Numbered from the stretch's first letter, positions 38,525-49,404 are shown. The stretch is 64,000 nucleotides of DNA from Rikenella microfusus (GCA_020722575.1 DYKN01000013.1:5649-69648), one strand, 5' to 3'. Numbers and translations: made by a program. The notes: a model not told the origin generated them from the sequence alone.

Positions 38525-39034
38525 TCAATAAAAAATATATTTTTTCCATTTCTCCATATCCCGTCCAATATAACGGACAATATGAAGATAAATGATCTTA
38601 TGGGGCATCTCCGGTTTCTTAATAAGCTTCATACCGGCCTCTTTGGGAAGCTTATCTCCTTTCCGATTATTGCACCGTCTACAGCAGGTAACCACATTTT
38701 CCCAAACTGTGGGCCCTCCTGATGCTTTGGGTATGATATGATCCATTGTCAAATCCGATGTTGCGAACTCCTTGCCACAATATTGACATATATGCTTATC
38801 TCTTAAAAGGACATTCCTTCTTGTCAGATGGATCGTCTTTTTAGGGATATAGATATATTTTAACAGCCTGATGACTGTTGGAATTTGGAACTGGTTATTG
38901 ACGCTATGTATAAGTACATTTGTAGATTCCTCTACAACTGCAACTCCTTTTAATACCAATACGACAGCACGACGCAAGGAACAAATGTGCACAGCTTCGT
39001 AAGTGTTATTTAGAACCAGAACACTTTTGTCCAT
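38525..39034 (-). CDS. Small McrA-like HNH endonuclease
   Basis: VLVLNNTYEA, RD...CQYCG, DHIIP, WENVVTCCRRCNNRK. Confidence 0.93.
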   Translation of the reverse strand: MDKSVLVLNNTYEAVHICSLRRAVVLVLKGVAVVEESTNVLIHSVNNQFQIPTVIRLLKYIYIPKKTIHLTRRNVLLRDKHICQYCGKEFATSDLTMDHIIPKASGGPTVWENVVTCCRRCNNRKGDKLPKEAGMKLIKKPEMPHKIIYLHIVRYIGRDMEKWKKYIFY

Positions 39035-39151: not shown

Positions 39152-40024
39152 TTAGGATTGAACCACTTTCATCTGGTTAAAAAACCTGACAAGGTCATTA
39201 ATGGGATCTCTGTCTGTCAGTAACTCACATGATTTAATGTTTTTTCTGAGAAGGGCATCCTTGTGCCTGTTAAAAAAGGAGGAAAGCGATTTTTCTTCAT
39301 TCTTAACATCCCGAAAAGGATGAAGGGAAACATCATAATCTTCCTCCAAATCAGCCAAACTTGCTGCAGAAAGATTTGACAATGTTTTTTCAGCAGGATC
39401 CGCTACAAAAAAAACAAAAACATCATGCCTTTTACTTAATAGATATAAAGCATGCTCATAATTATCAACAATCATGTCTGAAAGTATGAATATTATGGAA
39501 CGTTTCCTTTGGACTTTCTGGATGAATTCTATGGCATTTGTAAGTTTCGATTTACCAGATATAGGAGGATAAACAAGGATATCCCTGATAACCTGAAATA
39601 TATGATCCCTCTTTTTCTGAGGTCTGTAATATTTTTCAACTTTTTCAGAAAATAATGTTAGCCCCACCTTATCACCATTTTTCAAAGCTGCCAATGAAAT
39701 GAGGGCAGCCGTCTCAACAGCCAACTCCGATTTCAGCCGTCCTTTGGTACCAAATTTCAATGAATGGCTTACATCTAAAAGGATATTTATTGTAAGCTCC
39801 CGTTCTTCCATGAATTTTTTTGTATACAGATGGTTCGACCGGGCAGTAACATTCCAATCAATATTTTTTATATCATCCCCGTATTGATACTCCCGTACTT
39901 CATCAAATTCCATGCCTTGCCCACGGAATATGCTCTTATAACGTCCTGAAAAGATATTTTGAGCGGCTTTCCTGCTTCGTATCTCTATGAGCCTAACTTT
40001 TTTATCAAGAGCGCTTAAGTCCAA
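39152..40024 (-). CDS. DUF58 (VWA-like MoxR partner)
   Basis: GMEFDEVREYQYGDD..IDWNVTAR, DVSHS, SD. Confidence 0.93.
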   Translation of the reverse strand: MDLSALDKKVRLIEIRSRKAAQNIFSGRYKSIFRGQGMEFDEVREYQYGDDIKNIDWNVTARSNHLYTKKFMEERELTINILLDVSHSLKFGTKGRLKSELAVETAALISLAALKNGDKVGLTLFSEKVEKYYRPQKKRDHIFQVIRDILVYPPISGKSKLTNAIEFIQKVQRKRSIIFILSDMIVDNYEHALYLLSKRHDVFVFFVADPAEKTLSNLSAASLADLEEDYDVSLHPFRDVKNEEKSLSSFFNRHKDALLRKNIKSCELLTDRDPINDLVRFFNQMKVVQS

Positions 40025-40034
40025 AAGACACCTC

Positions 40035-41024
40035 TCAGGGGACTTCTAATGTATCAAAAATTTTCTTAATGATATCATCTGTTGTCATCCCCTCAGCATC
40101 AGCCTCGTATGTCAGGATAAGTCGATGCCGAAGAACATCTGCACCAATGGATCTTATATCTTCGGGGACAACATATCCTCTATGTTTGATGAAGGCATGG
40201 GCTTTCGAGGCAGTCGTCAATGACAGAGAAGCGCGTGGAGAACAACCAAAAGCAATATATGGCTTAAGTTCAGCAAGTCCGAAGGATTCAGGGTTTCGTG
40301 TAGCCATAACAATATCAAGTATGTACTCAATCACCTTGTCATCGATATATAATTCATTGATAGTATCACGAGCTGATAACAATACTTTGGGAGTGATTAC
40401 TGATGCTGTTTTTTTTACATTTCCCGTGGTATACATCCCAATGATTTTTTTCTCTTCATCTCTTTCAGGGTAAGTGACTTTTATCTTCATCATGAACCTA
40501 TCGAGTTGCGCTTCTGGCAAAGGATAAGTCCCCTCATGCTCAATAGGATTTTGGGTAGCTAACACAAGGAAGGGCTCATCCAATTTGAAAGTCTGATCAC
40601 CTAAAGTGACCTGTTTTTCCTGCATACATTCTAAAAGTGCACTTTGGACTTTCGCAGGTGCGCGGTTAATTTCATCTGCAAGAATGATATTTGAGAAAAT
40701 AGGGCCTCTCCTGGTCACAAATTCACTCGTTTTCGGATTATATATCAATGTCCCTAAAACATCTGCTGGAAGAAGATCCGGAGTAAACTGAATCCGTTTA
40801 AAATCAGTTTTAACGCAGGAGGCAAAAGTACGTACAGTTAATGTTTTAGCCAACCCAGGAAGCCCTTCAACAAGGATATGCCCACCTGTCAGAATTCCTA
40901 CCAACATTTTTTCAATAAATATCTTCTGCCCAACAACGGTTTGACCGATTTCCTCTAATAGTTCTTCAATAAACGCACTCTCTTTTTTTATTCGTTCATT
41001 CATAGCTTTGATGGATGGATCCAT
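40035..41024 (-). CDS. moxR: MoxR family AAA+ ATPase
   Basis: GLPGLAKT, RIQFTPDLLPAD, DEINRAPAKVQSALLE, EGTYPLPEAQLDRF. Confidence 0.96.
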   Translation of the reverse strand: MDPSIKAMNERIKKESAFIEELLEEIGQTVVGQKIFIEKMLVGILTGGHILVEGLPGLAKTLTVRTFASCVKTDFKRIQFTPDLLPADVLGTLIYNPKTSEFVTRRGPIFSNIILADEINRAPAKVQSALLECMQEKQVTLGDQTFKLDEPFLVLATQNPIEHEGTYPLPEAQLDRFMMKIKVTYPERDEEKKIIGMYTTGNVKKTASVITPKVLLSARDTINELYIDDKVIEYILDIVMATRNPESFGLAELKPYIAFGCSPRASLSLTTASKAHAFIKHRGYVVPEDIRSIGADVLRHRLILTYEADAEGMTTDDIIKKIFDTLEVP

Positions 41025-41107
41025 GTCTATCTCCTATTTACTGAAATTACTAAATATAAATATAGTATAGTGCAAAAAATGAAAAATTAATGAAAGAAAA
41101 AGAGGAA

Positions 41108-42112
41108 TTAACGAAGAAAAATAAGAAATACCACTGTTAATAACAAGGCGATTCCACCTATAAGCCATAAATAGATGGCAGAAGATGACTTACCAGAAGA
41201 AGCTGATGAAGATGTGCTGAATTTTACAGAAGAACTTGATGATGAATTTCCACCAGCCTGTTTTTTAACATTTCGAGAATCCAACAAGGGATCATATCGT
41301 TTCAATTTGACTTGTTCTTGTTCTGTGGCTTTGCCAAAAATTCCCGGACCTATTTCAACTAACAAATTATACTCTTTCGGAGAACTCGATGAGGAACGCA
41401 CTTCTTTGACAACTGCGGGAACAGGGATGACCTCTCCACTTTCGTTTCTAGCTCCCAGCAAATCAATGAAGTATTGCTCTTTTTGTGTCCTTCCTGCTAT
41501 CTTTACCACAATTTGATCACCAGGCTTGACGTCATATATTGGAATTCCACTGATTGGCCCAATGACAAGTCCTACATTTAAAACGACGCCCCCCTCATCA
41601 ACTTGAAAGGTTACGCTCTCCTGTACAGATGCTGAAGATGGAGCTGGGTCACTGGCCTTGACAGATTGGTCCCTTTCTGATTTTACAGCATCTATCGCAT
41701 CTTTTGTAACTGTCTCTTTTTCTAACTGGAGTGATATGTTCTTTTCTGACAGGATTTTTTCAATCAAAGATTGTATGGTATGTTCAGTTTTTGAAAAATT
41801 TTTTGAATCAAAATCATCTATAAACAGTTCGACGATATCTGTTAAAAATGACGATACAAAAAGCGCTTGAAAATCATTGGATAGACTTGTTGAAATCTCC
41901 CCATTAAATCTCATCTGCGCTATGATATCTTCAAACTTTTCCCAACTTTGAGCCGGATCATGATCATACATTGAACTGAAATGGGAAGCAATAATAGACA
42001 TCTTGTCTATGTTCTTCGAAGTCCTATCTATAAAAACAATGAAAATACCAAATGTATTTGTTGTCAGCGCTTTGAATCGCCCTTTTAAGATATGAATTTG
42101 ATTCGCAGCCAT
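41108..42112 (-). CDS. Hypothetical protein with Ser-rich linker and C-terminal TM anchor
   Basis: Long ORF; GPISGIPIYDVKPGDQI motif (reminiscent of DUF4899, uncertain); SSSSSS linker; terminal hydrophobic helix. Confidence 0.65.
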   Translation of the reverse strand: MAANQIHILKGRFKALTTNTFGIFIVFIDRTSKNIDKMSIIASHFSSMYDHDPAQSWEKFEDIIAQMRFNGEISTSLSNDFQALFVSSFLTDIVELFIDDFDSKNFSKTEHTIQSLIEKILSEKNISLQLEKETVTKDAIDAVKSERDQSVKASDPAPSSASVQESVTFQVDEGGVVLNVGLVIGPISGIPIYDVKPGDQIVVKIAGRTQKEQYFIDLLGARNESGEVIPVPAVVKEVRSSSSSPKEYNLLVEIGPGIFGKATEQEQVKLKRYDPLLDSRNVKKQAGGNSSSSSSVKFSTSSSASSGKSSSAIYLWLIGGIALLLTVVFLIFLR

Positions 42113-42193: not shown

Positions 42194-44230
42194 CTAATTT
42201 TCTGTTTTTTGTACATCAAGCTTCATTCTGCATTTATTAGCACTATTTATCAACTTGGGGTTCTGAGGGTCTATTTTTAGCCCCCTTTCCCACTCTTTTA
42301 ACGCATTTACATAGTCTCCATTCATATAAAAACTTACACCCTTCAGATAAAACTGGTTAACCTGAATCTCCTTGTCACTCATTCGTCCTTGGTCAGTGAG
42401 TACTGATGTCTCTTCTTGATATTTTTTTCTAAGGTTTATCTTATTCAGATTCATGATGGCTTTTAACCGATATGTATTACGTGGTGAATTGTCTTGTAAG
42501 ACTTTTTCCCACTCCTTTTTAGCCAAGTCGATTTTGCCTTCAGAATAATAGACAAGCCCCTTTTCATAGGCTTGACGAAGTGTTTCAAGGGGAATAACGA
42601 TAGCTGGGGGATTCAGTCTCTCTTCTATCTTTTCTAGATAATCCTCAACATTCTTATACCCCTGTCGGATCGACATGACCAACGTAAATGATTTTTTTGA
42701 ATTCGCATAATCCCGGTTATGATATTGGAGGATTCCAGTATCATAATGGCTTTGAAGAAATGATTCCACTTTTTCCGGTTCCAGCATCAGAGTATTCTTT
42801 ACAAGCAAGTCTCTTGACAATTTGTTATTTGGAAACAATAATAATATCTTCTCTAGATAAGACATTGATGTTTGATAGTCCCCTTTATTGAAAAATGCGA
42901 TTGAATCAAAGTAAAGTTTCATGACGATTTCATAATAGGGTGAATCATCATCAATCTCTTCCTGACTTCGTGAAAAGAGCACTTCTTTTGCCTTATCCAG
43001 GTATTCCTTCGCATATATGTTTTCTGGATCTAAATCAAGACACCTGCTCAATTCAAATATGGCATTCTTATACTCACCTACCTGATAAAAAGTTATACCG
43101 CTGTTCAAGTATTCAAGAATCTTGTCCTGTTGTTCCTGTATTTTTTTGGCTCGTTCCTCGTTTATCCTGTCTTGTATGAGTGTAAGATACTTGTTAACGT
43201 CCTTATAATTGCTGTTCAATGAAATAACATTCATGAAATTTTCACGGCTTTTCTGGTAATTTCTAGCATTATAACTTATGACACCTTGAGAATAAAACCC
43301 TTCCAGTTGTGCTCGGAAGATCTCCTGCTGCTTTAAAGAATCATAATGTGCCAATATTCTTGCCTTATAATCAGAAGCGATATCGTCCTGCGGATTTAAT
43401 ACAAGGATCTCATTGAATGCATCCAATGATTCCCCATACTTCTGTTCATTGAACAATCTGACAGCATTGGACATCATCAGTGTCATTTTTTGAAGCTGGA
43501 GCATTTCACTACGTAAGCGGTTTGCTTGTTGCAACAAATCACGAGCCTCCTGAAAATCCGGTGTTAATCCAAGCACATAATTCAACTCTTCAATTGCAAA
43601 ATCCGGTTTCCTCTGTTCAAGAAAAGCCCGTCCCTGTTCAAGATGACGGTCAATCTCCGCCAGCCTTTCCTGTTCATCGATCAACGCTTTGAGTTTATGG
43701 ACCTTTTCCATAACTGTAATATTGTCAGGAGCTAATACAAGCACTGTCCTATATTTTTCAAGTGCTGCAAGATATTCCTTCTGCTGATAAAGACGATCAC
43801 CTTCTTCTTCACGTTTTTGTACAAGGATTTCCTTGTTAATACGTTCAAGCTGTTTTTTCGATTTTTCTATATATTCCTTTGCTGTTGCATCATAAGGTGT
43901 TTCCTGCAAAACACTGTTAAAAATGACAATCGCTTCTGGATAATTTTTTTCTTTATAATAGTCCAGACCTTTCATAAGTAGTCTCTGTTTTGAAAGGATC
44001 CTGTCATAGGCTTTTCTATAATAGTTTTTCAGTTTTATATCTACATATCCATAGTTATCAATAAGCTGATCCCATTCCTGTACTGCCTTGATATATTCCT
44101 TGTTATTAAAATATTCCAGACCTTTAATAAAAATAGCATTGATTTGGGATCTGTCAGGTTCATTCTGCATGGCTGATAGTACAAACGCGGTTAGTATCAT
44201 AAATATGGTTAAAAGTGACTTATAGTTCAT
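42194..44230 (-). CDS. Large exported multi-TPR protein
   Basis: Signal peptide; many (Y/F)xxGxxYYxxxxYxxAxxxW/F TPR units joined by coiled segments; start overlaps the upstream stop (ATGA). Confidence 0.88.
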   Translation of the reverse strand: MNYKSLLTIFMILTAFVLSAMQNEPDRSQINAIFIKGLEYFNNKEYIKAVQEWDQLIDNYGYVDIKLKNYYRKAYDRILSKQRLLMKGLDYYKEKNYPEAIVIFNSVLQETPYDATAKEYIEKSKKQLERINKEILVQKREEEGDRLYQQKEYLAALEKYRTVLVLAPDNITVMEKVHKLKALIDEQERLAEIDRHLEQGRAFLEQRKPDFAIEELNYVLGLTPDFQEARDLLQQANRLRSEMLQLQKMTLMMSNAVRLFNEQKYGESLDAFNEILVLNPQDDIASDYKARILAHYDSLKQQEIFRAQLEGFYSQGVISYNARNYQKSRENFMNVISLNSNYKDVNKYLTLIQDRINEERAKKIQEQQDKILEYLNSGITFYQVGEYKNAIFELSRCLDLDPENIYAKEYLDKAKEVLFSRSQEEIDDDSPYYEIVMKLYFDSIAFFNKGDYQTSMSYLEKILLLFPNNKLSRDLLVKNTLMLEPEKVESFLQSHYDTGILQYHNRDYANSKKSFTLVMSIRQGYKNVEDYLEKIEERLNPPAIVIPLETLRQAYEKGLVYYSEGKIDLAKKEWEKVLQDNSPRNTYRLKAIMNLNKINLRKKYQEETSVLTDQGRMSDKEIQVNQFYLKGVSFYMNGDYVNALKEWERGLKIDPQNPKLINSANKCRMKLDVQKTEN

Positions 44231-45435
44231 TTTTTAATATTCTTGAGTATATCTTCGGCGTCTTTTACCTTTTTCTGAATAACCTTGTTTTCAGGATCAA
44301 TGGTCAAAGCTTTATTCCATTCCAGTATGGCCTTCTCAAATTCTTCCTGGACGAAATAGGACAATCCTTTATAATAATGAAGTTCTATCAACTTCTGTTG
44401 GTTTGGGTTTAATCCACTGATCGTCTCAAAGAGATCGAATTTAGTATTGACAGAGAAATTGTTTACAGAATTGAATACTGCATAAGGTGAATAGACATAA
44501 TCCACATGTGTATCAAAACCTTTAAACCGATAACGGATCCCTACTCCTGCAGTAAAAAAATTGAGATCATATCCAAGTTTAAACCCACATCGGACAAATA
44601 CAAGGTCTCTAAAAACATATTCTACTCCAGCGTTCAGCCTATAATCAAGGTCAATAACACTTCTGATATTATAGAGGTATTTGTTCAGATCCAGTGTCGC
44701 ATAAAGGCTATGATGTTGGTTTCCAGTGCCTTCCATTCCTATCAAAACAGGATAATAAAGACCTGCCTTTAATTTCAGAGGAACGATATCCGTATATGCT
44801 TTTGTTGATATGTTTTGCAGGGCTATCCCCACCTTGACATTGTTCAAAGATAACCATTTATTTGGGAAATATGGAATTTTGAGGTTCTTAACAAAAAACT
44901 GGGTTCCTAAATCAGCTGCAAAAGCATTGATCTTCAAATCATTGATTCCTAAGACACCCCATTTCAGCTGCATCCCTACTGAATACTGTTTCAACCGCAT
45001 AGCATAGGCAAGATTGATGACTGAACTTCCAAAATCCACAGTACCATCAGGGTAGCCATATTTGTCATAATTAATGAAAGGTGCTAAATGAAGGAATGTC
45101 CAACTACCTCCCATTGTACCTTTCACCCTACCAAATTTCACTGGCTGGGCATACGCCAGGTATTCTACTGAAGTATCATCAAACCAGTCGAGATGTACAA
45201 AGGCTGCCTGATTCCTGTTCAATGGAACAAGTCCTGCGGGATTGGAGGTCAGTCCCGTCACGTCTTCAGCAGCTGCACAATAAGCGCCTCCTAACCCATT
45301 CACCCTGCTATTCAATTCAAATTGGAATAGGTTCATACCGTCTGTACCGGCAAAATCCGTAAGACTGCCAGTCGCAAAAAGTTGTGGTAAACATGTTAGT
45401 AAAACGGTTATGTAGGCGAGCGTTAAAAGTCTCAT
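44227..45435 (-). CDS. PorV/PorQ-like (UPF0164/FadL-type) outer-membrane beta-barrel with C-terminal TPR
   Basis: Signal peptide; RVNGLGGAY.A.AED..L..NPAGL hatch motif; amphipathic strands (AGVEY, GVGIRY, VDYVY); terminal TPR. Confidence 0.85.
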   Translation of the reverse strand: MRLLTLAYITVLLTCLPQLFATGSLTDFAGTDGMNLFQFELNSRVNGLGGAYCAAAEDVTGLTSNPAGLVPLNRNQAAFVHLDWFDDTSVEYLAYAQPVKFGRVKGTMGGSWTFLHLAPFINYDKYGYPDGTVDFGSSVINLAYAMRLKQYSVGMQLKWGVLGINDLKINAFAADLGTQFFVKNLKIPYFPNKWLSLNNVKVGIALQNISTKAYTDIVPLKLKAGLYYPVLIGMEGTGNQHHSLYATLDLNKYLYNIRSVIDLDYRLNAGVEYVFRDLVFVRCGFKLGYDLNFFTAGVGIRYRFKGFDTHVDYVYSPYAVFNSVNNFSVNTKFDLFETISGLNPNQQKLIELHYYKGLSYFVQEEFEKAILEWNKALTIDPENKVIQKKVKDAEDILKNIKK

Positions 45436-46745
45436 TTGATGATAATCACCTTCCTAACTTGATTGACATCTTTAGCTCGAATTGTAACAAAATACATACC
45501 GACAGCAACAGTCATTCCAGCATGGTTTTTACCATCCCAAAGAATTGGTCCGTATTTACCTGGTTCTTTCACACCTTCATCATACCGTCTGACAAGATCA
45601 CCCTTGAGGTCATAGATATCAATTCGTACACGTCCTTTTTTCACAACCTCATAAAGAATATTTATGTTCTGATCAATACGCAAATCAAGAATAGTTGGGA
45701 ATACATTGAAATTTTGACCTTGGTCTGGCCGTTGTTTAATCTGGTACATGTAAGGTGTTCCAGCATTGTCATAAACAACATGATCTACTGAAACTATGAA
45801 TTTGACAGTTTCACCATCCTTGAATTCAGAATCATTGGCGGGTATCAGACCTTGCCAAGTCATACCGTTCCAAGACAGTTTAACAGCACGATCGTTCATA
45901 TTTGGTCCATAAGCACCATCTGGATTCTCTGAGACATCATAATATATCCAGACATTGTCTGCATCTTTCGGGTCTCTATCAAGTGTTACATTCACAAGAA
46001 TATCCGAAGCATTTAGGAACTGACTTCCTCCAAAATCCGTTATCAATTTCATTCCATCGTTCGCAGTTACAGCCTTCACAGCATTTGTAGGAGCATAAGT
46101 TATGATTGTGTTTGTAATCCATCGGACATAATTACTCATTACGTTCGAACGGACTGTCTTCACCTCGATAACAACCCTGTTGGTAATGCCGATGGGAGCA
46201 GAAGGCGGCACACTCACCTGGAGGAAACAGGTGAAGAGGTCGCCTTCGCCCAATGCCGGCGTATTGGTGATCCTGATATCACCAGCGTCAAAGGTTCCAT
46301 TGTCATTCGTATCACCATAGACAGCAGTCGTCATGTTCGTAACCATATTGGATACGACACGCACGCGGAATATGTCTGAATAATTGTTGGATGACTGGAT
46401 ATCAAAGGGAAGTGAAGAGACAGAACCTATGACAGCATAAGAGGTTGTCGAGGTTACGTTGAACTGAACGAAATCTGAAACGACATTGGTAGCATAGGCC
46501 GATGTCGAATACCCCGTACCAGCAAGGTTTGAATAAACCGCAGTTACGGTATTCGTCAGACCTGTTCCGGAAGGAGTCTTAGCCATTAGTGCGGAGTCCG
46601 CCATGAGTAATGCCAGAAGGAACATTACACCTGTCACACTCGGACGTAACCGTCCAAATATCCAGGACTTCACTGAGGAGCCAAGATTGAATAAACTGGT
46701 TGCAAGGGCTTCAGTGACTATGGGAATACGTTTAAGTATACCCAT
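45432..46745 (-). CDS. Secreted Ig-like protein with C-terminal FlgD-Ig/T9SS type-A-like sorting domain
   Basis: Extended signal peptide; TNTVTAVY N-terminal segment; DTNDNGTFDAGD Ca-binding-like loop; C-terminal IYDLKGDLVR..WDGKN..G.Y....KVIIIK. Confidence 0.82.
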   Translation of the reverse strand: MGILKRIPIVTEALATSLFNLGSSVKSWIFGRLRPSVTGVMFLLALLMADSALMAKTPSGTGLTNTVTAVYSNLAGTGYSTSAYATNVVSDFVQFNVTSTTSYAVIGSVSSLPFDIQSSNNYSDIFRVRVVSNMVTNMTTAVYGDTNDNGTFDAGDIRITNTPALGEGDLFTCFLQVSVPPSAPIGITNRVVIEVKTVRSNVMSNYVRWITNTIITYAPTNAVKAVTANDGMKLITDFGGSQFLNASDILVNVTLDRDPKDADNVWIYYDVSENPDGAYGPNMNDRAVKLSWNGMTWQGLIPANDSEFKDGETVKFIVSVDHVVYDNAGTPYMYQIKQRPDQGQNFNVFPTILDLRIDQNINILYEVVKKGRVRIDIYDLKGDLVRRYDEGVKEPGKYGPILWDGKNHAGMTVAVGMYFVTIRAKDVNQVRKVIIIK

Positions 46746-46942
46746 GAACTCTCACCTTTGGTTTTAGATTATGTCAGGAAAGTGCATTATCATGGGGAAA
46801 GGGAATAACACTGGTACTACTGTTATAGTAAGATTCATAAATAATAAATCTACTTATAGTCTTGGATAAAAATGCGAGTATCAAAAAATGTTATTGTGGC
46901 AGATACAAATGCAAGTAAAGTGTATGAACTCCCTTATGTTCC

Positions 46943-46962
46943 CCGGATAAACAACTATCCGG
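46943..46962 (-). terminator. Stem-loop in the 3' region of the DUF11 gene (partial terminator or stabiliser)
   Basis: CCGGATAG-TTGT-TTATCCGG hairpin without a strong U tract; small hairpins nearby. Confidence 0.45.
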
Positions 46963-46995
46963 ACAAAGTCATGAAATCTCCTAAGTTTTTAGGTA

Positions 46996-48057
46996 TTATT
47001 TCACTCGGACCTTGTACATAAGGGTGCCTTTTGCGCTTCCAGGGATATTGGAGCTATAACTGAAAACTACAGAGCCTGAATTTGCGGAACCAGTCAAACC
47101 ATAGTTTTTAGCTAAAGATTTAATTGGTGTTGAGCCATCATCAGCAAGGACTTTTCCAGCATCAAAAGCAGTCTTATATGATATGAAATAGTCAGATGTT
47201 ATCTTCACATCATTGGTATATGCGAGCGATCCGGAAACAAAGTCAAAGACTGTTGTATTGATGGGATCAGAGAAACTGAGATGCTTGACAAAACCAGATC
47301 CGGCATTGGTCCATGTGATTACATAGACAATTTCTGAACCTGGAACAACATCTTTCCAGTGGGCGCCTGCAGCCAGAGCCATGAAAGAGGCAGAGTTGGT
47401 AACTTCCGATCTCTTTGAAATCACTATGCTCGGTGCCTGAACTATAGCAATAGCAATTCCATTTGTGATGAAATCACGTCCACCAAAAATGGTTGTGCCG
47501 TTCATGCTGGTATAGGCTGTCAGACCGGAGAGAGCACCATAGACACTGTTATAGACACCTGCATTGCTGATCTGTGATCCCCAAATGTTGGTTGAAGATT
47601 CGCCATCAACTGCAGCAGCATCAGCTCTCATATAAAGATAAAAAGTCTGGAAATCATCTTCAGCAAGAGTGAAGGATTTGAAAGCTCCACCACTTGTACT
47701 GACATTTGTATAGAAATTGTAGTACCAAGAATGAGTACCAACAGTAGCAATCCTGTAGTTGGACAATGCAATGACCACAGAAGTGTTACCACGGTTGGTA
47801 ACAGACATCATAAATGTTGTTCCTGCACCAGGAGCAACATATTTTACGGCATAATTGCTATAATCTGACTTCAGACCATAGATGGCATTGACTGTATTTG
47901 TTTCATAGGCCTTATTTGAATAAGGTGTATTCCCCAAATTGGAATAAATGGCTGTTACAGTATTTGTAACACCAACTCCTGCAGCGGTTCCAGAGGCATG
48001 CAATGCCATCGGAATAAATAGAAAAAGCGCCATAAGCGCGGTAATGATTCTTTTCAT
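46996..48057 (-). CDS. Secreted DUF11-containing Ig-fold protein, candidate major fibre subunit
   Basis: AAGGAG SD before ATG 48057; Sec signal MKRIITALMALFLFIPMALHA; DUF11 signature IVISK...VVPGSEIVYVITWTNAG...FSDP; ends LMYKVRVK. Confidence 0.85.
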   Translation of the reverse strand: MKRIITALMALFLFIPMALHASGTAAGVGVTNTVTAIYSNLGNTPYSNKAYETNTVNAIYGLKSDYSNYAVKYVAPGAGTTFMMSVTNRGNTSVVIALSNYRIATVGTHSWYYNFYTNVSTSGGAFKSFTLAEDDFQTFYLYMRADAAAVDGESSTNIWGSQISNAGVYNSVYGALSGLTAYTSMNGTTIFGGRDFITNGIAIAIVQAPSIVISKRSEVTNSASFMALAAGAHWKDVVPGSEIVYVITWTNAGSGFVKHLSFSDPINTTVFDFVSGSLAYTNDVKITSDYFISYKTAFDAGKVLADDGSTPIKSLAKNYGLTGSANSGSVVFSYSSNIPGSAKGTLMYKVRVK

Positions 48058-48249
48058 GACTGACTCCTTGTTTTTATTTTTTTGTGAAATGTCGTAAATC
48101 TCGTTCCTCTTCAGATGTTTCTCTTTACTTTTCATTTTGATGTACCTCTTATTGATTTTTTTTCAGGTTCGGAATCGGTGGTCAACCTTTATGACCTTGC
48201 AACCTCCTTAGTTTCAGAATATGGCCAAGCAGAATCCTATCACCTCCTT

Positions 48250-49359
48250 TTATGGAAAAATCTTAATCTCATGTATTTGGATAAAATTCCATTTGCCGTG
48301 TTTTGAAAAATACTTGGACTTTATAGCTGTTAACCTCACATAACGGCCTTCTTTTGTTGGAAACTGGATCTCCTGCACTTTAACAGGTGTGCCGGACATG
48401 TAAGTCCGAGGGACCTTATCCGCATCAAGTTGGGAAGCAATAGTCTTCCATACCTTTAAATCCTCACTGATTTCAACATTATATTCGGTGCTATAAGCCA
48501 AAGCACGCCAGATAACAATGACTTTGGAGATCTTCGTCTTTTTACCAAGATCTATTATAATCTGTTGGTTGTTGGAACGAATATCGCCAGAAACGGACAT
48601 CCCTTTGAAATAGTCCACTCGACCATCAGTAATACGCTGAAGGGAATTCGGACTCATATCAAAAAGTCCATCTTCATAAACATAATTGGTAAAAGTCCCT
48701 GATACGGTTTTTCCCAAGGCAAGATTATCTTCCAATGTCGAAAAAGACTTGATTTCTGTATTGTTAGTAATATTGTCTTTGTTCACTATCTGGATGAAAT
48801 AGTAATATCTACTTGAAGGTTTTAATCCTGAAATAAGAAACTCACCAGAAGCCGTTTCTTCCATGGGTATCACATTACGATTAATCTCACCCTCTTTGAC
48901 ATAAATAAGTGATGATAGGACTGCTGCGTTCGCCTCCCACTTGATACGAACATATTCCTTACTTTGGCTTGATACTTCATTCTTTGTGATAACTGGAAGT
49001 GGATTCCCCGCTGTTAAAAAGGTCTTAATCCCTGATTTTACAACTACAGGCTTGTTTGCTTTATACTGGAAATTACAAGATATTTCGTAATAATAAACTG
49101 TCCCTTTTTGAAGATTATTGAGAAGAATCTGATGGTTGATTGCTTCACCAATACTAAATGCTTGGTTATGTAATCGAGCCGAATCTTCTCCATAGGCTAC
49201 ACTTCCAGTGGAAAGTTGGTCTGTTTTCCACTTGATAATAACATAATTTTCAGTGATATTGGTCACCACTGAATAAATCAACTTGTCCGCATTTAAATAT
49301 GATGCAAATACAAATGCCAGTATATATAGAATAAATGCGGTTCTTACGAGCTTGGCCAT
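48250..49359 (-). CDS. Secreted protein with two FN3-like domains and an F5/8 (discoidin) domain
   Basis: IKWKTD..STGSVAYG..H..LL.NL..GTVYYY (two copies), NLALGK, IIIDLG, GRYVRL, IHEIKIF. The GAGGTG SD favours ATG 49359. Confidence 0.85.
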   Translation of the reverse strand: MAKLVRTAFILYILAFVFASYLNADKLIYSVVTNITENYVIIKWKTDQLSTGSVAYGEDSARLHNQAFSIGEAINHQILLNNLQKGTVYYYEISCNFQYKANKPVVVKSGIKTFLTAGNPLPVITKNEVSSQSKEYVRIKWEANAAVLSSLIYVKEGEINRNVIPMEETASGEFLISGLKPSSRYYYFIQIVNKDNITNNTEIKSFSTLEDNLALGKTVSGTFTNYVYEDGLFDMSPNSLQRITDGRVDYFKGMSVSGDIRSNNQQIIIDLGKKTKISKVIVIWRALAYSTEYNVEISEDLKVWKTIASQLDADKVPRTYMSGTPVKVQEIQFPTKEGRYVRLTAIKSKYFSKHGKWNFIQIHEIKIFP

Positions 49360-49388
49360 ACTCATAATCACCTCACATAACTAAAACA

Positions 49389-49404
49389 TGCAATAATCGT
49401 TCCA
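49389..49404 (-). promoter_or_regulatory. Putative sigma54 (-24/-12) promoter
   Basis: TGGAACGATTATTGCA: exact GG-N10-GC spacing, one mismatch to TGGCACG-N4-TTGCW. Confidence 0.7.

Follow-up and report, generated by a model that had tools for sequence, protein, structure and literature searches.

A PorV-like barrel gene coupled to an immunoglobulin-fold protein with a type-A-like sorting tail: a probable cargo-carrier module on a contig binned as Rikenella microfusus

The 64,000-nucleotide stretch analyzed here (the window; GCA_020722575.1 DYKN01000013.1:5649-69648, deposited as Rikenella microfusus), whose own numbering is used throughout, carries five consecutive genes on the minus strand that encode a discoidin protein (gene 1), a DUF11-like protein (gene 2), a 437-amino-acid (aa) protein of immunoglobulin (Ig) folds (gene 3, the cargo), a PorV-like barrel with a tetratricopeptide repeat (TPR, gene 4), and a 678-aa multi-TPR protein (gene 5). 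Our analysis suggests that the trio of genes 3 to 5 (42194-46745), and not the set of five, is the functional unit. This trio probably encodes an Ig cargo together with its cognate PorV-like carrier or anchor, and would plug into an SprA-like translocon encoded elsewhere. The original prediction, made from the window alone, had proposed a compact, self-sufficient export operon of all five genes behind one sigma54-type promoter.

All five open reading frames (ORFs) lie where they had been placed, and each translation, judged by eye, starts with a signal peptide (basic start, hydrophobic core, and small-residue cleavage site). Both 4-base ATGA stop-start overlaps, one between the cargo and barrel genes and one between the barrel and TPR genes, were borne out by a minus-strand read (Table 1). 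The Shine-Dalgarno sequence AAGGTGAG stands 6 bases ahead of the cargo ATG, and untranslated gaps lie ahead of gene 2 (~190 bases) and gene 3 (~250 bases). Co-orientation, which had been offered as an operon sign, carries no weight because nearly every window gene is on the minus strand; among 53 window ORFs of at least 150 aa, only ~3 non-overlapping ones lie on the plus strand. The domain assignments held for the discoidin, FlgD_ig, PorV-like barrel-TPR, and multi-TPR parts. The DUF11 assignment found no Pfam match, and a second fibronectin type III (FN3) domain fell under the cut-off. The absence of sprA and porKLMN from the window agrees with Pfam scans of the neighboring genes.

The cargo ends in a sorting tail. 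FlgD_ig matched the tail with 29.2 bits (cut-off 27), and a six-frame genome scan gave 23.4 bits for a type IX secretion system (T9SS) sorting domain, neighboring pieces in frame included. An AlphaFold2 model of the cargo built from 28 sequences reached a mean predicted local distance difference test (pLDDT) score of 85.0 and a predicted template modeling (pTM) score of 0.61. The model contains three beta-sandwich domains, namely D1 (~residues 60-217) and D2 (~223-345), both Ig-fold, and the tail, for which the local pLDDT was ~90-95. As modeled, the tail has the fold of the type A C-terminal sorting domains (CTDs) of the T9SS proteins PorU and PorZ. Residues 341-437 aligned with the PorU CTD (6za2_B) at Z 10.6 and a root-mean-square deviation (rmsd) of 2.7 over 89 aligned residues, and with the PorZ CTD (5m11_A) at Z 9.5 and an rmsd of 3.0 over 87. 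G382, W403, G416, Y418, and K432 of the tail are invariant across the 28 sequences. D1 gave only generic structural matches of the PapD, ASH, and MSP type of Ig domain, Foldseek of the whole cargo model against the PDB returned only generic tandem-Ig matches, and ESM Atlas matches to D1-D2 at TM 0.5-0.6 are leads only.

Five full-length cargo homologues were found, with 41-70% identity. A profile search of 1.84 billion representatives produced 37,930 matches at E <= 0.001; tightening the limit to E <= 1e-10 left 919, and to E <= 1e-30 left 44. About 20 clusters were of like length, and most matches comprised the tail, by itself or with the Ig domain ahead of it, as the C-terminal part of larger proteins. 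At the other end of the cargo (46580-46745, minus strand), a conserved helical extension of ~30-40 residues stands ahead of the hydrophobic signal-peptide core, with model helices at residues 9-32 and 35-48. The upstream ATG has a good Shine-Dalgarno sequence ahead of it, so this extension may be an extended signal peptide.

The barrel encoded next to the cargo matched the PorV/PorQ family model NF033709 from position 2 to 326 of 326 with 113.3 bits (cut-off 90; 112.5 bits in the genome scan). Its scores against the PorV and PorQ equivalogs (NF033710, NF033711) were far under the cut-offs, at 27.7 of 250 and 48.8 of 220 bits, respectively. Judged by these profiles, the barrel is a PorV/PorQ-family member and an orthologue of neither PorV nor PorQ. 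UPF0164 (PF03687) was also passed, with 31.4 bits (cut-off 21.4), over residues 43-161 only. The TPR at residues 351-383 is presumably periplasmic. This barrel-TPR protein is rare, as a word-based search of 5.8 billion proteins found 7 clusters including the window's own, at 45-100% identity. All 7 (six homologues and the window protein) combine a barrel with a C-terminal TPR, and N65-P66-A67-G68 is invariant in the barrel homologues.

Binding between the two proteins was then predicted with barrel-TPR residues 22-402 and cargo tail residues 340-437, in three runs with three controls. The predicted complex scored an ipSAE of 0.86 (runs 0.84-0.87), and the best control scored 0.00; 58 of 80 solved complexes are reported to reach the ipSAE mark used, as are 2 of 110 mismatched pairs. 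At least 97% of the contacts were shared between runs, with a partner pLDDT of at least 87. The predicted interface includes the invariant K432 of the cargo tail. A conserved type A CTD lysine touches PorV in the translocon complex whose structure is solved (PMC10994853; for this and the papers cited below, statements refer to the portions of text available). The original prediction had suggested modeling the barrel with the CTD as a check, and the modeling returned a predicted interface. Its pairing of a PorV-like barrel with a CTD-bearing neighbor is supported by barrel family, tail fold, predicted binding, and a conserved gene pair.

The gene pair recurs outside the window. At one metagenome locus (L040), a cargo homologue of 45% identity stands directly before a barrel-TPR homologue of 48% identity. 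At another (L037), from a metagenome-assembled genome (MAG) labeled Spirochaetia, a different passenger, Malectin + CBM9, has a tail of this kind, and its gene shares 4 bases with that of a 520-aa PorV-like barrel with a longer TPR block. Circumstantially, cargo and barrel homologues were also found on longest contigs of equal size (P0012/P0005, 9037; P0011/P0006, 3612). We fetched 47 loci with a PorV-like barrel, some of them duplicates (for example, L033/L058), and 36 had a same-strand upstream ORF. Thirteen of these 36 neighbors carry a C-terminal FlgD_ig, Por_Secre_tail, or CHU_C domain. When only barrels of at least 500 aa are considered, eight of nine come after a CTD protein, with gaps that run from -4 to 109 bases. 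Another five of the 36 are ~1180 aa long with no Pfam match, a PorU-like size, and two of these come from Marinimicrobia-labeled records. Apart from the CTD-less neighbors weighed below, the remaining three are a PD-(D/E)XK nuclease and two short ORFs without a Pfam match.

Twelve MAGs carrying PorV-like barrels of this sort were searched for T9SS components. Ten were labeled Spirochaetia, FCPU426, Dependentiae, or Elusimicrobia (G061-G070), and a Zixibacteria and a Marinimicrobia genome served as controls from the Fibrobacteres-Chlorobi-Bacteroidetes (FCB) group. The ten MAGs held 20-38 PorV-family matches per genome, with 12 in Zixibacteria and 6 in Marinimicrobia, and five MAGs held 17-41 Por_Secre_tail matches per genome. 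At least 28 of the 149 CTD matches listed for five MAGs had a PorV-family match 87-286 bases downstream on the same strand. This comparison was made by eye on the 150 listed of 334 barrel matches, so the pair count is a lower bound. About a third of the barrel matches listed in the MAGs sit in open frames of at least 500 aa. The SprA model TIGR04189 matched all ten MAGs in collinear sub-threshold pieces (best 54-104 bits, frames of 890-2170 aa) and exceeded its cut-off in both controls. SprA_N (PF14349) gave 0 of 5 over the cut-off, and it was the longer TIGR04189 model that showed the divergent SprA-like proteins. The PorU model matched at its CTD end only in the ten MAGs, over its whole length in Zixibacteria, and from the catalytic region to the C-terminus in Marinimicrobia (297.5 bits, under the cut-off). 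Peptidase_C25 was found in none of the ten MAGs and was present in both controls. Relatives bearing such pairs carry divergent SprA-like giants and dozens of CTD proteins, which suggests that the pair plugs as a module into a larger T9SS-like pathway, and the earlier idea of compact, self-sufficient export is not supported.

Under the preferred reading, Sec would export the cargo, and extracellular loops of the adjacent PorV/PorQ-family barrel would capture its type-A-like tail. The cargo-barrel pair would then pass or leave an SprA-like outer-membrane translocon encoded elsewhere in the host genome. With no sortase to cleave it, the tail would stay on its private barrel, leaving the Ig domains on the cell surface. 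In the periplasm, the barrel's TPR and the 678-aa TPR protein would tether the barrel or couple it to machinery. The domain identities, tail fold, gene coupling, recurrence of the pair, and a predicted interface are observed here, and the need for a translocon, tail retention, surface exposure, and the part played by the TPR protein are inferred from them.

The 678-aa TPR protein has a signal peptide with no lipobox cysteine and matched TPR_2 with 120.1 bits along with 12 other families, mostly TPR types. Its residues 533-672 match the TPR extension of the L037 barrel (28.9% over 142 aa, E 4e-6). TPR blocks are fused to PorV-like barrels at four loci (L035, L037, L062, and L063), and a fifth (L060) has LysM instead. 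Because relatives fuse the TPR block to the barrel, the barrel and the TPR protein may act together on the periplasmic side, and we propose that the latter is a periplasmic partner of the barrel's TPR tail. Past the TPR gene, at 39152-42112 (minus strand), lie genes for a LIC10486-like/DUF4899 protein (both matches far under cut-off), a MoxR AAA_3 ATPase, and a DUF58/VWA protein, and an HNH endonuclease follows at 38525-39034. The TPR protein could serve these LIC10486-like, MoxR, and DUF58 genes as a Bat-like module, which we regard as unlikely and which is compatible with the cargo-barrel reading. The gaps of just 81 and 83 bases among these downstream genes and a weak match of the TPR protein to Leptospira BatC (31.5 bits, cut-off 175) favor that role. 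The ATGA overlap of the TPR gene with the barrel gene, the barrel-TPR fusions, and the match of the C-terminal part to the L037 extension argue instead for a partnership with the barrel.

The contig carrying the window (C69) is foreign to its genome bin (G000; 97.8% complete, 7.4% contaminated). Among 61 genomes searched, the barrel-TPR protein turned up in just one, the bin itself, and no same-genus genome (0 of 36) had it. The window UvrA is 53-55% identical to the UvrAs of the bin's genus, and the bin has two more UvrA copies. Ten more single-copy markers of the window (FtsY, FtsH, Hpt, TilS, Pth, L25, PrsA, IspE, DnaG, and ThrC) have second copies on other bin contigs, at 25-50% identity. 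With UvrA, the duplicated markers number eleven, at 25-54% identity. Tetranucleotide composition groups C69 with contigs C162 and C190 and ~15 small contigs, ~0.24 Mb together. Three genes of the bin, for canonical SprA (2697 bits, its sole SprA), canonical PorV (414.8 bits), and the one rpoN, lie on the main-bin contigs C26, C51, and C207, respectively. Because C69 is foreign to the bin, none of these three is creditable to the locus. As a practical caution, the contig contaminates its bin, and the T9SS genes of that bin should not be assigned to the genes described here.

Judged by housekeeping genes, the host is not a member of the Bacteroidota. The window UvrA is 60-63% identical to MAGs labeled 'uncultured Spirochaetia'. 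The candidate phylum to which these MAGs belong has 99 species representatives and includes an 'FCPU426' MAG as well. Because its identity to all full-length matches in this 99-species phylum is a uniform 54-63%, inside no sampled clade, the host is left unplaced. These data neither bear out the earlier label of a probable spirochete nor speak against it. The search of this genome for SprA and for other FlgD-Ig tails, which had been suggested, found a tail-bearing pair on C190 and a FlgD_ig barrel on C162, and SprA on the main bin only. On C190 (L072:34-699, 711-1595), whose composition is like that of C69, an FN3 + Por_Secre_tail ORF lies directly before a 294-aa barrel without TPR and makes up a second cargo-barrel pair. 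On C162 (27083-29710; L070:7083-9710, minus strand), an 875-aa protein joins a PorV-like barrel and FlgD_ig to an OmpA domain at its C-terminus. Giant ORFs of 3789 aa (a stop-to-stop frame) and 4153 aa, both with T9SS-type tails at their ends, lie downstream of it.

The two genes ahead of the trio are less closely tied to it. The gene 2 product had no Pfam match and scored 22 bits against TIGR01451, under the cut-off of 24. Five homologues share 37-58% identity with it, and three of them (P0018, P0021, and P0022) pass Pfam DUF11 (PF01345) with 27.8-32.9 bits (cut-off 24.6). Its putative DUF11 membership is thus assigned by homology only. The N-terminal domain is homologous to cargo D1 (hhalign probability 97.7%, E 2.2e-12, 185 columns). 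The structural model has a mean pLDDT of 57.3 and is confident only at residues 210-353, and ESM Atlas returned DUF11-type clusters, which are leads only. No CTD family was detected in it at E <= 0.1 in Pfam and NCBIfam. Speculatively, it might be an associated subunit that sits on the cargo anchor via the shared N-terminal domain. Homologues of the DUF11-like protein and the barrel occur on longest contigs of equal size twice (P0022/P0007, 23064; P0019/P0003, 3483). The full-length DUF11-like family was not found in the 99 candidate-phylum genomes, where only DUF11-repeat matches of 45-70 residues appeared, in 6 genomes.

The gene 1 product matched F5/8 type C with 51.7 bits (cut-off 28.2) and the FN3-like Pur_ac_phosph_N with 38.5 bits (cut-off 30). 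Its second fn3 match, at 20.2 bits, is under the cut-off of 25, and no CTD was detected in the Pfam and NCBIfam scans. Position apart, no link between the discoidin gene and the trio was demonstrated. With the DUF11-like family not found full-length in the 99 genomes and the discoidin gene unlinked, the expected synteny of all five families was not borne out.

The sigma54-like string TGGAACGATTATTGC ahead of gene 1 has one mismatch to TGGCAC-N5-TTGC. Allowing two or fewer mismatches, this pattern has 35 matches in the window against 37.2 +/- 6.8 expected. A sigma70-like TTGATT-16-TATAAT (10/12) lies at 49494-49467, in the same spacer as the sigma54-like string. With such gaps before genes 2 and 3, transcription of the five genes from a single promoter is not established, and the proposed sigma54 promoter gains no support from a chance-level pattern count beside a competing site.

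Table 1. Positions of the five genes and associated features in the window
Feature	Position	Strand	Basis
Gene 1, discoidin protein, two FN3-like domains + F5/8 type C, secreted	48250-49371	-	ORF + Pfam
Gene 2, DUF11-like protein	ORF 46996-48135; likelier coding sequence 46996-48057 (353 aa)	-	ORF, AAGGAG before ATG at 48057
Gene 3, cargo, 437 aa: N-terminal leader, D1, D2, sorting domain	45432-46745	-	ORF, model
Cargo C-terminal sorting/anchor domain, residues 346-437	45435-45710	-	FlgD_ig, fold
Gene 4, PorV/PorQ-family barrel (~residues 22-340) + TPR (351-383)	44227-45435	-	NF033709, UPF0164
Gene 5, multi-TPR protein, 678 aa	42194-44230	-	TPR families
ATGA stop-start overlap, cargo/barrel genes	45432-45435	-	Sequence read
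ATGA stop-start overlap, barrel/TPR genes	44227-44230	-	Sequence read
Sigma54-like string TGGAACGATTATTGC before gene 1, function unsupported	49404-49390	-	Pattern match

Three other readings of these genes were weighed. The five genes could form a self-contained exporter that sends a DUF11 polymer through or beside the barrel, with the CTD protein as a tether and no SprA-type translocon. The window holds no translocon gene, the DUF11-like and CTD proteins share an N-terminal domain as a subunit and an anchor might, and DUF11-like and barrel homologues twice share a longest-contig size. However, PorV-family barrels act as carriers, not translocons, in the solved system (PMC10994853), and pair-bearing relatives have SprA-like giants with tens of CTD proteins. 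The DUF11-like protein is also without a sorting tail, its family was not found full-length in the 99 genomes, whose members abound in CTD-barrel pairs, and a single promoter for five genes is unsupported. We consider such an exporter very unlikely. It is quite unlikely, too, that the barrel takes up hydrophobic nutrients as a FadL-type importer with its TPR in the periplasm, in which case the neighboring CTD gene would be incidental. The UPF0164 match, the invariant NPAG hatch-type motif, and the barrel + TPR architecture seen in 3 of 5 Treponema pallidum FadL-like proteins (PMC8407342) speak for import. The UPF0164 match is limited to part of the barrel, whereas the PorV-family model spans all of it, and the 4-base overlap with the CTD gene, the recurrence of CTD-then-barrel adjacency, and the predicted tail-barrel interface all oppose import.

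The pair could also be secretion machinery, a counterpart of the PorZ-PorQ/PorU-PorV attachment complex that serves many cargos. In line with this, the best fold matches of the tail are the PorU and PorZ CTDs, the tail matches the C-terminal end (positions 698-757 of 757) of the model for PorZ with 21.3 bits, and the barrel's PorQ score exceeds its PorV score. We nevertheless find this reading highly improbable, since the passenger has just two plain Ig folds and neither a propeller nor a peptidase domain, and the PorZ, PorQ, and PorV equivalog scores are all far under cut-off. The barrel family is also rare, unlike a core component, and the number of barrels per relative genome fits one barrel per cargo.

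Several observations weigh against the preferred reading of a cargo with its own carrier that depends on an SprA-like translocon. Adjacency to a CTD gene is not universal, as 12 of the 36 upstream neighbors are a conserved, CTD-less protein of ~330 aa and three are LptE. On the cargo itself, Por_Secre_tail is under cut-off in both Pfam (PF18962, 21.3 of 27 bits) and TIGR04183 (20.5 of 23). Solved PorV-CTD complexes exist, and the ipSAE pass may reflect likeness to them. The complex prediction covered one cognate pairing, so it does not bear on specificity. The SprA-like matches in relatives are each under the family cut-off and fragmentary. GldM (TIGR03517) and GldL (TIGR03513) had no match in the 12 genomes, FCB controls included, so the result on the motor is uninformative. 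Of the host itself, only the ~0.24 Mb of similar-composition contigs is at hand, and the sole SprA of the bin is on a main-bin contig. An SprA-like gene is thus not attributable to the host. Finally, the TPR protein could belong with the downstream MoxR-DUF58 genes.

Two side observations concern the surroundings of other PorV-like barrels. The ~330-aa protein, which has no confident Pfam match, precedes barrels of 301-316 aa at gaps of 76-290 bases (L018-L021, L023, L024, L027, L028, L041, L043, L045, and L049). These barrels are the best genome-collection matches of the window barrel, and the ~330-aa protein may be another partner family. An ABC-ATPase-like stretch lies ~400-850 bases past the barrels of L019, L048, L051, L054, and L055. 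The stretch shares 31-32% identity with UvrA residues 459-577 across ~100-120 aa.

Known systems offer partial parallels. In Porphyromonas gingivalis, PorV carries PorU and PorQ carries PorZ, both of which retain their CTD (PMC12365241, PMC10202324). As proposed for the window, a type A CTD protein is there held at the surface by a barrel of the PorV/PorQ family, and the CTD fold and NCBIfam barrel family are the same. The main organism of the bin likewise encodes a 1174-aa CTD protein directly before its canonical PorV. The window differs in that its passenger is two Ig folds rather than a sortase or propeller, its barrel bears a TPR and has a long TPR protein encoded after it, its host lies outside the Bacteroidota by housekeeping genes, and its equivalog scores are far under cut-off. 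A cargo with its own linked barrel is also known from type B CTDs, which have a cognate PorP/SprF-like shuttle (PMC12618676, PMC9143113), as with SprB-SprF of Flavobacterium johnsoniae. There, one cargo and one dedicated barrel with linked genes combine a type B CTD with a PorP/SprF barrel, whereas the window combines a type-A-like tail with its own PorV/PorQ paralogue. Type A CTDs are described as all recognized by a single PorV shuttle (PMC12618676).

The T. pallidum FadL-like UPF0164 proteins (TP0548, TP0856, TP0858, TP0859, and TP0865) share the Pfam family and an NPA-type motif with the window barrel, and 3 of 5 have a 14-strand-type barrel with an alpha-helical, presumably periplasmic TPR extension at the C-terminus (PMC8407342). 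They are read as nutrient importers, and the available text of that paper describes no CTD cargo partner, whereas the window barrel is coupled to a CTD gene and predicted to bind its tail. The canonical T9SS (SprA/Sov, PorV, PorU, and PorKLMN) resembles the present case in its CTDs and PorV-family barrel and in the SprA-like giants of the relatives. It differs from the ten related MAGs, which are without a C25 sortase, carry many barrels each, and show fragmentary SprA-like matches. T9SS and CTD cargo have been described as confined to Bacteroidota (PMC10202324). Within the literature covered, which comprised few subscription journals and no supplements, we found no type-A-like CTD cargo with private PorV-family barrels and no T9SS-like sets in Spirochaetes, Elusimicrobia, or FCPU426.

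Herein, a wider and more tentative reading can also be offered, in which an undescribed T9SS relative without a sortase operates outside the FCB group, the trio being one of its modules and each CTD cargo being permanently held by its own barrel. The barrels would be tethered in the periplasm by TPR, OmpA, or LysM, and the window cargo would recruit its DUF11-like paralogue through the shared N-terminus; we regard this as possible yet doubtful. If true, it would account for the 20-38 barrels and 17-41 CTD proteins found per 2-4 Mb genome. As a corollary, the T. pallidum 'FadL-like' UPF0164 TPR barrels may descend from cargo anchors and not from lipid importers. This broader pattern is of more interest than the locus itself, which is one rare module on a contaminant contig. 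Together, the locus and its relatives point to type-A-like tails with private, periplasmically tethered PorV-family barrels in lineages without a PorU sortase. If this is true, it would provide a simple, testable model of surface display in several uncultured phyla, natural cargo-barrel pairs for work on CTD recognition and specificity, and a new view of the spirochetal UPF0164 outer-membrane proteins that are studied as vaccine targets.

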